A stretch of DNA of 64,000 nt from Octopus sinensis (GCF_006345805.1 NC_042999.1:97340001-97404000); one strand, 5' to 3'; positions 21,901 through 48,556 are shown, counted from the first letter of the stretch. Translations and numbers: made by a program. Notes: generated from the sequence alone by a model not told the origin.

Positions 21901-24105
21901 TGATACCTTTTGATTTTAATAGATTAGGAAAAGTTTTTAAGATGTTTGCAATAAAATGTTTCATTGTGAAAACCAAACTATGATATTTAATTTAAAACAA
22001 ATAAATAAATTTATTTCTAATGTTTAATGTAGTACAACATCAATTAGATTAATAAGTTAAATAATAACAACAAGCTTTTTAATGTAAAACTAAAAAATGT
22101 TAATTAATAAGAAAGTCTCTAAATTGCCTTAGACCACAGACGGCCATACAAATTAATAAACAAGGCTACTGGTAAGATGATCAACAGCTCATAACTTACA
22201 AATGACACTGCACCGTGTTTCTGGCAAAGATACTTAGAATTCTTAGTTCAATCTAGTAGCTGTTTTATAGTATCTACTACTTAGTAGATCTTATAAAACA
22301 ACAATGAGCATTGGAAACTAATATTTATTAGATTCTATTGTTTCAACCAATATTATTATCTAAGACACTAAAATTTAGAAAGAGAAAAATTACGTTGCAT
22401 ACTGCTGAGTAAGTGAATTAATTCTATATGAGAATAGAATAATTTAGCCATGGTCTAAAATATTGGGAGTTAAAACTTGTGAGAATATGATGAATCTGAT
22501 TCAAAGTACCCCAATTTCAAATGAGTTTGGTTTCTTCAGCACAGATGACATCAGAACCAAACATATTGTCTTTAGACTGTTTGTATAGTACCTGATATCT
22601 GTAGTTTTCTTTGTGAATACACACCACTGGTTGATTTATTCCAGTTATTGGCTAATATACAAACAGTTTGATTGAGAGAATGATGAGTGCTTCTGGCTGT
22701 GCTAACATGACATACGACTCCAGTAGGAGTCATAAGTCATGGAAGTCATAAATTTCATCACTTCAATAATTAATAATTTAATTTGATTTACATTAATTTG
22801 TTTTGTTTCTCTGCTTTTGACCACTTTAATCCCACTCTTACTCTTTTTTTTTTGTGCAAAATATAGACAGGAGTTTTGTAGCAAGTTTGAATATTTGCAT
22901 ATTTTTATAGCTGGATATGCTTCCAACTGCTAATAAAGGCTAAGAATGATTTTCACCTTTATTAAAAAAGATTCGTACTTTATTAAACATTGTTAGGAAA
23001 TACAAGACTAGAAATGCTTATTAGTTTGCCAGTATAGCTGTCTTTATCTTGTATCATCTCCCCAATGAGGCTTAACTTTTTGTGGCCTAATCATGCCTGG
23101 ATTGCAGGTGTCTGAACATGCAATAATAAAATTGATTACAATAACAATGTTTATAGCAACAATACAACAATAATTTGGAGTAAGAGGGTAACAACAAATA
23201 CAAAATGAACTGAAGATTTAAAAGTAGTCATGAGAGGGAATGAGGGAATGATTATGAGGATGAATTTAATTGATGACTTCGAACTTGCTTGAAGATAGTT
23301 AACTAATTGGACCAGTTCTACATCTTTAAAACTATAGCCAAGAAAGATCTCTTTAATTAACAGTTCTGAATCATTAAATGTGAAAGATGGTTTGCATAAG
23401 GTAATGTGTAAACATAAAAACTAGACCTGTCCCTTGATAATATTAGTAATTTTAAAAAGAATTCATTAAAAGCATATTACAAGCTTTCCTTTTCCCAAGA
23501 AAGCAATATAAAAAGCATAAATAATGTAGAGTTTTGTTTTTCTCAAGACAAAAGAGAAATAATATTGTCATTTGTAAAGATCACCGCAAAACTATTCTTT
23601 ATATGGTATAAACTTCAATAGTATAAACTTCAATGGTATAAACTTCAATATTGTGAGATTTATGTATGCTGAAATTTTAAAACCATTACAGCTAATTTAA
23701 AGCACTGCCATAGAACTAGCAACTTCTATTGCTGCCATTCTCTTTAAATGGATCATTTATAGCTATTTTTTTTAAAAAAAGATAAAGAATAATTCAAGTC
23801 CATTTGTAATAAATGTCCTTATCAGACTCCATAGCATAATACCGAATATTTTACATCAAACATTGAGAAAAACTGACACAAACTGGGACACCTGAAACAT
23901 TATAAAAACAATTTAATACAGTTCTATATTTAAGAGATGAGGAACTATGTACATTATTTACATCATTTACATTTGATGGATATTTGTCCTCATCCTGCTT
24001 GTTGTTAACACGTTTCAGCTGATATACCTCCAGCCTTCATTAGGTGTCTTGGGGAAATTTCGAACCTGGGTTCTCATTCCTAGGGTATTTTGAATGTTGT
24101 TGTTG

Positions 24106-24149
<44 letters not shown>

Positions 24150-26514
24150 GTTGTTGTTGTTGTTGTTGTTCAGGTCACTGCCTGGAATCGAACTCGGAAT
24201 CTTGAGGCTACTAACCCCAAGATTCCGAGTTCGATTCCAGGCAGTGACCTGAATAATGATGATGATGATGATGATGATAATAATAAGAACAACAACATTG
24301 AAAATACCTTAGGAATGGGAAGCCAGGTTCGAAATTTCCCCAAGGCACCTGATGAAGGCTGGAGGATATATCAGCCGAAACGTTGTGTTAACAACAAACA
24401 AGATGAGGACAAATATCCGTCAAATGTAAATAATGTAAATAAAAACAATTTAATTCTTCACTGAAATCTTCTACTATAAAGTATAGCTAAAAAGAACAAG
24501 GTTAAATTGTTTATAGCTATATTAACAAAATCAAAATATTTCCTTCTAAAACAATACAGTATGTATAACAAACATATGGATTATAAATCTAAATAGGAAG
24601 GACAAAGTATCTTACTTTGTGTTTCTGCAGACTAACTTCATATAATTCCTGTCGAGTTTTGTTCAGATCTTCTTTGTCTTTGAGAATATGTTTCTGCAGT
24701 TCTTGTATCTGGTAAAGGTGAGTCAATTGAACACTGCTAACTAATATGTCAACATATAACTTGTGTTATATGCAACATATAACACATTATACACACATTG
24801 AATATAATCTGCTATTTATGCAATGTAAACAAACGTATTGATAATATCAAAAATAATAAGCATGAAAGACATTTAAAAAAATAATTTATATCAAAGTCAA
24901 TAAAAATTCTCTTCACTTTGTCATTTTTATACACATACCACATAACAATAGAGCAATCATGTACGTTTATGGTGAAGTGTTTTGAGTCCATATACAAGTA
25001 GGTAATGATATAATCAGATTCTTGAAACTTCACTACTACTGAAATACATGGACATGCTTACATACATTGCCCTGAGGCACAATTCATAGTCTGTAATAAG
25101 GAATGAAATTATGACTGTGTGGTTAGTGACCCAGTATACTTAAGTCTCACTACCACTAAGCTTCATGTAGATTTGATGAAACAACTAATTTATAAAACAA
25201 AGAATATTACTATTTCAATGCTTAACAACAACTGATAATGTAGGTGTGTAAAATAAAATCAGGTTCTAAGATGCTACTACAGACCATAAGTTCAGATCTA
25301 GTAACTGTCATTGTAGTGTATTGCTAAACAAAAGACTTAACATTGCCAGTTTCATTTACCTATCAGGAAATGTACAAGTTGTTTATTAGAAAAACAGCCT
25401 CTCCTAAATAAACTATCCTGCTCATGGAAAAATGAAAGTAAAACAGTAGGTGTATAGACATAATTATATACTGATTAGATTACTAAGGCAGAAGTATTAT
25501 ACACAAATATGTACCTCATTTCGTTTTTCTTGCAGATTCTGGGTAAGGCCTTTAATTAACTTGTTCTTTTTGAGGCCATTAGTTTTTTCAGTCTCTAATT
25601 CACTTTCTACTTTCTTCAATTGTTGTTCTAGGAGCTAACAAAGAAAGAGAAAAGATATTTAGAATATAATACTAGACTCAAAAAATATCAATAATTCAAA
25701 AAGATTAATTTAAATGTACTTGTATCAAAATTATTGCAAAATATATGAATTTGTTTGTTGCATTGACGAATGAATGCAAGAAAGTAGATCAGTGTATTGG
25801 AAGACAAAATAATGTTGATAGAAAAAGAAAATCAGTTTGTATTCCAACTTTAAAAAGCCTTATCATGAATGCAATATGAGAAGGAATGGCAATAACCAGA
25901 GCTTAATAACTGTTCTTGCTTTGAACTTAGTGAGTGTTTACAACTCAAAGTATAATTGTCATAAAGACAATCATATGAGTCATATTTTTATGTACCTTCT
26001 AATAAACATAACAGAAATAAAGATATAATTAAAAAATGAAAATAAAATAAAAAAACATTGACTTACAGCTACAGAGTCTCCCTTTTCATTCATAGATGTA
26101 TTCAGCTGCTGAATCTCTGACTCCATCTTCTTGATGTTTTCTTGTTTGTCATCTATCATATCCTGAATAGAGAACATGTATTATATTTACAGTGTTCTTT
26201 CTTCGAATAGTACACAAATGTAAATGCATGTGCTTATAATGGTCTTACTAGCAGAAATATATACAGTCATGGTCAAAAGTTGGGAACATAGGTCTGAAAA
26301 TTAGAATTTTTATTTTAAATGCCTGAAGTTATATTTAATTTGCAATATATTATTACTTGGCCAAAAAGTTTGGAACATTGGTTTGAAAAATGGAATTTTT
26401 ATATTAAATGCCCACCAAAGTCATATTTGAATCAAATTGTACTTGGCCATAACAATTTTAATATAAAAAAAAAATGTTCCAAACTTTTGGCTACAACTGT
26501 GTGTGTGTGTATAC

Positions 26515-47417: not shown

Positions 47418-47882
47418 CAGTTCTATATTTAAGAGATGTGGAATTATGTACATTATTTACATTTGACGGCTATTTGTCCTCATCTTGTTTATTGTTAACA
47501 CGTTTCAGTTGATATACCCTCCAGCCTTCATCAGGTGTCTTGGGGAAATTTCGAGCCTGGGTTCTCATTCCTAAGGTATTTTTCGATGATGATGATGTTG
47601 TTGTTGTTGTTATTGTTATTATTATTATTTTTCAGGTGACTGCCTGGAATCGAACTCAGAATCTTGGGGTTAAGAGTGTGGACTACTAAACCCCAAGATT
47701 CCAAGTTCGATTCCAGGCAGTGACCTAAATAATAATAATAATAACATCGAAAAATACCTTAGGAATGAGAACCCAGGTTCGAAATTTTCCCAAGACACCT
47801 GACGAAGGCTGGAGGGTATATCAGCCGAAACATGTTAACAACAAACAAGATGAGGACAAATATCTGTAAAATGTAAATAATG
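47418..47882. mobile_element. Fold-back tRNA/hammerhead element copy 2
   Basis: Homologous to 23919-24437; junction at 47668-47672; B box 47705-47714; CTGACGA...GAAA at 47799-47830; ~12-bp TSD TGCTA(T/C)TTTATT at 47406-47417 and 47883-47894. Confidence 0.85.
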
Positions 47883-48556
47883 TGCTACTTTATTATTATT
47901 TAGGTAGTGAACTGGCACAATTGTTAGCATGCTGGGCAAAATGCTTAGTGGTATTTCATCTGTGTTTATGTTCTGAGTCTAAATGTTACTGAAGTCAACT
48001 TTATCTTTCATCCTTTCAGGATCTATTAAGTAAGTACCAGTCAAGCACTGGGTTTGGTATAATCAACAAGTCCCTTCCTCAACCCAAAATTCCAGCCCTT
48101 GTACCTACAGTGGAAAGGATTCAGCAGCAGCAGTTAGGATGGTGAATGGCAGAATCAGCAAAGTATCGAACAAATTACATTGTGTTATTTAGTTGTTTAT
48201 GTTCTGAGTTCATATCCTGCTGGAATCACCTTTACCTGTCCTCCTTCTGCTGTTGACGAAGTAACAGTCAAGCATTAGGGTTGCACCTTCCTCTAAATGT
48301 GTCTTATGTCTATGCTAGTTATCAGTATTAGAATTGCTAGGTTATCAAAAAGCTTGTGTTTTTGAATTTGCATGGGCCACATTCAAGGCCATGAGATGTT
48401 AACTACCTCCAAACCCTCAATTCACCAGATTCACAGTCTTATATGAAGGAAACAGAACTTTATTTTTATATTCCACATGAAGATAAGAATGCAAATGAGA
48501 AATATTAATGTTAAGTGAAAAATCAGTAACACTATACAATGCATGAATTATTAATA

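Follow-up and report, generated by a model that had tools for sequence, protein, structure and literature searches.

The window analysed here, 64,000 nucleotides of Octopus sinensis DNA (GCF_006345805.1 NC_042999.1:97340001-97404000), holds at 23919..24437 an inverted repeat element whose two arms lie head to head and show 87-93% complementarity. Folded as a hairpin, the whole inverted pair has a z of -36.5. Each arm contains the 3' half of a tRNA-like sequence with a B box, together with an AAT/GAT microsatellite; the A box is absent from both, each arm being cut within the anticodon stem. A 31-nt extension is confined to the left arm, and a 16-bp direct repeat flanks the element (Table 1). 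The arms, the left-only extension and the target-site duplication had been noted in a preliminary description made from the sequence alone, and all are confirmed in the window sequence. That description took the element for a non-coding, tRNA-derived short interspersed element (SINE) borrowing the machinery of Penelope. We read the locus as a 5'-truncated, head-to-head insertion of the pseudo-long terminal repeat (pseudo-LTR) of an autonomous Penelope-like element (PLE), in which the tRNA-derived head, with its A and B boxes, is likely an RNA polymerase III (Pol III) promoter; the probability of this reading is put at about 0.6.

Identity of the arms

From the ATG at 24315 the right arm translates as a PLE N-terminus (52% over 21 aa, E 2e-5), so the element is not non-coding as had been supposed. 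The hammerhead and the extension, which corresponds to the PLE tail, make up the first ~50 codons of an open reading frame (ORF) for a reverse transcriptase (RT) with a GIY-YIG domain. In genome G000, coding sequence was found beside the head in some of the first 30 loci, and a peptide query taken from there gave 4,133 candidates. The tRNA-like head stands ~30 nt past the ORF stop in 27 of 30 fetched GIY-YIG loci, where it is usually followed by the AAT repeat and hammerhead region; of the other three loci, two had lost it and one was truncated. A decayed near-full copy (L062) aligns to the full-length relative P0005 at about aa 46-844, and its tail passes directly into the ORF. The ORF relatives P0005 and P0001 carry RVT_1, and the C-terminal part of the ORF scored 0.96 against GIY-YIG clusters. 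Pfam searches with the decayed ORF fragments matched nothing relevant and a PDB sequence search gave weak RT matches only.

The unit runs head, AAT repeat, ATG, hammerhead, tail, RT, GIY-YIG, stop and ~30 nt, in a partial tandem. As in endonuclease-containing (EN+) PLEs, a single ORF encodes RT and then a GIY-YIG endonuclease (seen in L062 and others), and the pseudo-LTR arises from the partial tandem and overlaps the ORF start. Each window arm is the pseudo-LTR of an autonomous PLE. The preliminary description was right in pointing to Penelope machinery and a PLE-type minimal hammerhead, and probably also in supposing initiation by Pol III, and autonomous RT and GIY-YIG elements sharing the 3' region of the arms are present in G000.

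Its proposal of an independent SINE that borrowed a Penelope 3' end fared less well. A separate non-coding tRNA-SINE lineage, with its own masters and a borrowed Penelope hammerhead and tail, would account for ORF-less copies starting at the head, with A and B boxes, being the majority of head-bearing arms, and these copies are slightly less diverged than ORF-linked ones (5.9% vs 6.8%). However, the same head is fixed within the pseudo-LTR of the autonomous element, the supposedly borrowed segment is ORF sequence, and none of 213 positions separates 114 head-start from 65 ORF-linked arms (Bonferroni). As there are no diagnostic variants, head-start copies are likely derived from the same masters as ORF-linked copies, and a separate lineage is very improbable.

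Exact 25-mers of the hammerhead, the B box, the A-box start of the head and the spacer upstream of the head occur 5,008, 2,101, 1,315 and 660 times in G000, respectively. Together with a divergence of ~6-7%, these counts suggest tens of thousands of arms. An apparent common 5' end at a single point in the ORF was traced to the reference copy and rejected as an artefact. No close relative with DNA context was found: metagenomes yielded distant PLEs only (9 loci), and the prokaryotic and viral collections yielded none.

Some further observations concern the family and its relatives. The second endonuclease motif reads YKG, not YIG, at L035:1390-1818, and likewise in P0001 and P0005. A second, much younger PLE family (L312 and L313; G000:C10:81395500-81400000 and C2:148096500-148101000) has many open frames of 775-777 aa, in which the head of the present family finds no match; L314/L315/L318 and L321 represent further PLE families in G000. 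Near-identical duplicates with shared flanks (L240-L243; L069/L074; L107/L108) reflect either segmental duplication or redundant contigs. In front of the AAT microsatellite of the pseudo-LTR there often stand 3' ends of other AAT-tailed retroelements, as upstream of the arm body in L010, L011, L012, L014, L016, L020, L023, L029, L127, L128 and L138. Some of these ends resemble R4/Dong-type long interspersed element (LINE) ends, and nested insertion into the microsatellite is the likely origin.

Insertion structure

Arms were paired automatically to give 85 inverted pairs, with four loci counted twice. The tail is present on exactly one arm in 75 of these, and the arm 3' ends form two clusters. 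A flanking repeat of 10-18 nt was found in 43 of the 85 (counted by hand with one mismatch allowed and no shuffled control). Arms of the same insertion were 89.8% alike and arms of different insertions 89.2%, which was not a significant difference (p 0.10). The one-sided tail and this lack of extra likeness between paired arms favour two priming events over snap-back copying. The sampled copies were single, head-to-head or ORF-linked, and head-to-tail arrays of the kind formed by non-LTR retrozymes were not seen among them.

These features agree with what is reported for PLEs in the excerpts available from the literature, here and below cited by PMC or bioRxiv number. An inverted, 5'-truncated copy and a 30-40-bp tail are PLE hallmarks (PMC8557442). 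A 31-bp tail, 8-10-bp duplications and a pseudo-LTR that overlaps the ORF and bears 5'-terminal palindromes have been described (PMC3846280), as have minimal hammerheads in pseudo-LTRs, with opposite-strand pairs 100-700 bp apart (PMC4209133). On insertion both target strands are nicked and two internal RT starts bracket the tail, and the hammerhead is protein-assisted and dispensable for insertion (PMC11167929). For a PLE, an inverted arrangement with a tail and a duplication of variable length is textbook structure.

A long inverted repeat could also suggest a miniature inverted-repeat transposable element (MITE) of DNA-transposon origin, with terminal inverted repeats, or a microRNA (miRNA)-like hairpin, and Rfam returned miRNA-hairpin matches below threshold (57 bits against a gathering score of 94). 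Against this, the ends are asymmetric, the tail being on one arm in 75 of 85 pairs, the duplication length varies, the junctions vary, and many copies have a single arm. The continuity with the RT ORF is in itself enough to refute this explanation, which has practically no probability left, and the earlier view that the element is not a MITE stands.

The tRNA-derived head and the 5' ends of copies

Complete heads with an A box, which the window arms lack, exist in other G000 copies. Over its full 76 nt the head aligns colinearly with G000 tRNA-Arg(ACG) genes, starting at +1, and up to 49 of its 76 positions are identical, with a score of 63.5 against 16.7 +/- 5.7 for shuffles (z ~8), which upholds the tRNA-Arg likeness first seen in the window. 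A and B boxes are intact in the full head, while T-stem and acceptor pairing have been lost. Rfam assigned the full head to no tRNA family, and ARAGORN found 0 tRNA genes in the full heads of L095, L106, L258 and L263. Two tRNA isotypes (Arg, Thr) and three types of SINE head were compared as donors, and tRNA-Thr was rejected, its matches (44/77 and 43/79) being poorer than those of Arg. G000 has ~90 tRNA-Arg(ACG) genes in tandem at ~206-bp period (C2:3121912-3162240; L271-L281), and a tRNA-Thr(AGT)-like array at ~152-bp period is found at C1:210.44 Mb.

Copies tend to begin at the head. When A-box copies were followed in genome order, 24 of the 30 taken end within 8 nt upstream of +1 and six continue into spacer or ORF. 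In a set anchored on the B box (93 unique arms from 88 loci, 332 nt examined), 52 arms start at -8..+7, where 5.8 would be expected at the in-head rate (p about 1e-31); 29 others end in the head at +8 or later, eight further upstream and four beyond 332 nt. The 52 include seven arms whose ends at -12..-17 were treated as fold-back extensions and reassigned; without them the pile-up numbers 45. Among 30 loci found by the ORF 5' end, seven distinct insertions retain the upstream head and three begin at the head. Pol III would begin 10-15 nt before an A box.

The same ends could be produced by an ordinary PLE carrying a passenger, i.e. a head of tRNA or SINE origin that entered the 3' untranslated region of the master in a single insertion, with the pile-up arising from a 12-nt palindrome at -7..+5, through self-priming or RT fall-off, or from a coincident Pol II start. 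The ends of 17 of the 52 pile-up arms do fall at -7, the edge of the palindrome, although seven of these are the reassigned fold-backs, and rotifer PLEs have palindromes at pseudo-LTR 5' ends and inverted junctions (PMC3846280). Drosophila Penelope and Chlamys elements, as far as the excerpts describe them, have internal promoters with introns, i.e. of Pol II type (PMC8557442). The palindrome accounts for some junctions but not for the ends at +1..+7, and many ends at +1..+7 or -1..-4 do not involve it; no strong structure was seen upstream. The passenger explanation also leaves to chance that the edge lies within ~7 nt of tRNA +1 in a unit of ~2.7 kb, and that A and B boxes are intact though T-stem and acceptor pairing are lost. 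We consider it rather unlikely, yet it is favoured by the weakness of the oligo-T signal described next.

Runs of four T (T4) were counted along the sense strand. In 42.9 kb of ORF segments there were five, all private, and neither in the ORF nor in the arm body was there a T4 site common to 40% of the covering copies. The L312/L313 PLE family, from the same genome and of equal T content, has 9-11 T4 runs in 2,334 nt. Under synonymous-codon nulls 2.7-4.8 runs would be expected, giving p values of 0.05, 0.025 and 0.006 depending on the null, and codon choice for Phe showed no significant avoidance of TTT (6:13, p 0.09). The T4 shortage is suggestive only.

Several findings weigh against a Pol III promoter captured as a tRNA head. 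The T4 depletion is modest, two other control PLE families have only 1-5 T4 runs in 1.0-2.9 kb, and G4 runs are equally absent. Sharp palindromic 5' edges of pseudo-LTRs are also found in PLEs described as having TATA- or initiator (Inr)-like motifs rather than tRNA heads. A resident SINE head fits the head of the family as well as tRNA-Arg does (48/76), so that the immediate donor may have been either, and four of the seven long copies with an upstream head continue into upstream ORF. Translation of an uncapped Pol III RNA poses a further difficulty. RNA-seq gave no help: three unstranded runs, of which about 6% each was read and aligned to L076, gave 11,568, 8,627 and 7,889 reads with both strands equal, 63-68% of the aligned reads continued into unlike sequence, and neither these runs nor one contig set showed a pile-up of starts or ends on L076. 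The RNA-seq pattern fits read-through of scattered copies and as such has no bearing on Pol III.

Hammerhead

A hammerhead had been proposed for each arm. The right arm has a complete core, consisting of GGCAC (24344-48), CUGAUGA (24349-55), an extra A, GGCUG/CAGCC, GAAA-CG-UU and GUGUU (24385-89), and the claim holds there; the left-arm motif is broken, with a core of CUAAUGA (a natural G5A) and a loss of 3 nt at the cleavage triplet. The palindromic helix III ascribed to the motif is not real, as only an ACGU palindrome is present. Rfam detected no hammerhead family in the window copy, and the isolated right-arm motif folded no better than shuffles (z -0.5 and -1.9), so the hammerhead is called from its motif and from the occurrence of that motif throughout the family. 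The core is complete in majority letters and its boxes are kept in 85 of 172 arms. Within the family no covariation was seen and the differences resemble neutral decay with a CpG bias, in a region that is also coding. In one distant and unrelated metagenome PLE (L231) the hammerhead layout is the same, with helices changed but paired in a compensatory manner; by inspection, no tRNA head is evident between its stop and hammerhead. Ends of copies or reads did not pile up at the predicted cut site. The hammerhead is of the ordinary PLE type and is likely a weak cutter that is dimer- or protein-assisted and not needed for insertion.

Features of the window

The features of the element are collected in Table 1. 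To its left, at 23603-23650, lies a 15-bp unit in three tandem copies. On the minus strand at 24607-24711 there is a probable coding exon, with a coiled-coil-like peptide and splice-like ends; if so, the element would be intronic, ~150 nt from the donor, and would place a -300 kcal/mol hairpin in the pre-mRNA. An ARAGORN call of tRNA-Thr at the window copy was rejected as an artefact of the inversion centre.

Table 1 Features of the inverted element and of a second copy in the window
Feature	Position	Strand	Remarks
Left target-site duplication, 16 bp	23902..23917	+	last ~4 nt also match the element end (microhomology); continuation of the element seen in L062
PLE tail, 31 nt, left arm only	23919..23949	-	continues directly into the RT-GIY-YIG ORF in long copies
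Left arm body, Penelope ORF 5' end	23950..24097	-	start codon 24075-24077
Left-arm minimal hammerhead, broken	24007..24048	-	G5A, 3-nt loss at cleavage triplet
Left-arm AAT/AAC microsatellite	24098..24169	-	
Left-arm 3' half of tRNA-derived head	24170..24210	-	B box 24185-24193; A box lost
Inversion junction in anticodon stem of head	24200..24215	.	short microhomology; putative joint of two cDNAs
Right-arm 3' half of tRNA-derived head	24206..24252	+	B box 24229-24237; A box lost
Right-arm AAT/GAT/AAC microsatellite	24252..24297	+	
Right arm body, Penelope ORF 5' end	24298..24442	+	ATG 24315; ends at tail-less reverse-transcription start
Right-arm minimal type I hammerhead, core intact	24344..24389	+	predicted cut after 24384; overlaps codons PDEG..PKRC
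Right target-site duplication, 16 bp	24439..24454	+	
Second independent head-to-head copy, same PLE family	47418..47883	.	tail on left arm

Discussion

The sequences described here suggest a PLE that probably relies on a captured Pol III promoter and gives off SINE-like copies. Transcription by Pol III would start a short distance 5' of the head. If that head belongs to an upstream pseudo-LTR, the transcript would continue through the T4-free ORF; a downstream or solo pseudo-LTR would instead yield a SINE-like RNA of ~330 nt retaining the protein-binding and priming region. As in the anole PLE, the element's protein would then nick both target strands and prime at two internal sites, with and without the tail. 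The two cDNAs may anneal at their 3' ends through microhomology or the short palindrome at the 5' edge of the head, which would give the inverted arms, the one-sided tail and the 10-18-bp duplication.

A stronger version of this scheme is possible but doubtful, namely that a protein-coding Penelope was switched to Pol III by the capture of a head from a tRNA or SINE. The A and B boxes would then drive transcription of the entire ~2.7-kb RT-GIY-YIG unit, its oligo-T terminators having been purged, and the uncapped RNA would be translated. The element would be its own SINE, with Pol III-initiated pseudo-LTR retrocopies making up the majority of its tens of thousands of copies.

With canonical EN+ PLEs of the Penelope/Poseidon type, such as Pen2a_Av and green anole PAc, the family shares the single ORF with RT and C-terminal GIY-YIG. 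It also shares the pseudo-LTR overlapping the ORF start and the minimal hammerhead at the ORF 5' end (PMC3846280, PMC4209133), as well as the inverted 5'-truncated copy, the 31-nt one-sided tail and the short variable duplication (PMC3846280, PMC8557442, PMC11167929). It differs in that the pseudo-LTR starts with a tRNA-derived A/B-box head marking most 5' ends, whereas the PLE promoters described in the available excerpts are TATA/Inr-like or associated with introns (PMC8557442, PMC3846280).

The preliminary description knew of no precedent for its combination of features. A tRNA-derived sequence, a hammerhead and apparent Pol III transcription have been reported in one repeat for schistosome Sm-alpha and Sj-alpha (PMC6765202, PMC2770079), and to that extent the combination is not new. 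These, however, are non-coding tandem repeats with a canonical, efficient hammerhead, their promoter comes to lie at the 3' end of the cleaved monomers, and the same excerpts do not report them as the pseudo-LTR of a coding PLE. Our full-text literature search turned up no coding PLE whose pseudo-LTR carries a head of tRNA origin; repeat databases may list the family under another label. Excerpts of octopus repeat surveys list Penelope and SINE classes and do not mention this head (PMC13282606, PMC8967140).

Non-LTR retrozymes and non-autonomous PLE derivatives (e.g. MRC1) are likewise short hammerhead units derived from or mobilised by PLEs (PMC7229834, bioRxiv 10.64898/2026.07.22.740005), but as described there they form head-to-tail arrays, whereas the copies studied here are single or head-to-head and of the same type as the autonomous pseudo-LTR. 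The bioRxiv report mentions neither tRNA nor Pol III. Cassandra, Helenus and Ajax also have a Pol III-type small-RNA sequence inside the terminal repeat of a retroelement, yet in the accounts available in part they are non-autonomous LTR elements with no ORF, and not PLEs. With tRNA-derived SINEs the family has in common the A/B-box head, copies starting at that head, a simple repeat and a 3' part recognised by the RT of a partner; here, however, the partner itself bears the head, and no distinct non-coding lineage was detected. Judged from the sequences, what is surprising is a built-in candidate promoter of tRNA type marking PLE 5' ends, while the rest of the Penelope architecture is known.

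The transcription and RNA start sites of PLEs are poorly known. In this family a recognisable candidate promoter sits where the copies begin, a position that makes the question of PLE RNA starts testable. The family also shows how a PLE can give rise to hammerhead repeats resembling SINEs or Sm-alpha. Annotation would wrongly place thousands of copies among tRNA-SINEs, MITEs or tRNA pseudogenes, and in the host the head-to-head copies would form long double-stranded hairpins in pre-mRNAs. If the full element is indeed transcribed by Pol III, the polymerase of tRNA genes would be reading a protein-coding retrotransposon, which would blur the divide between SINEs and their autonomous partners.

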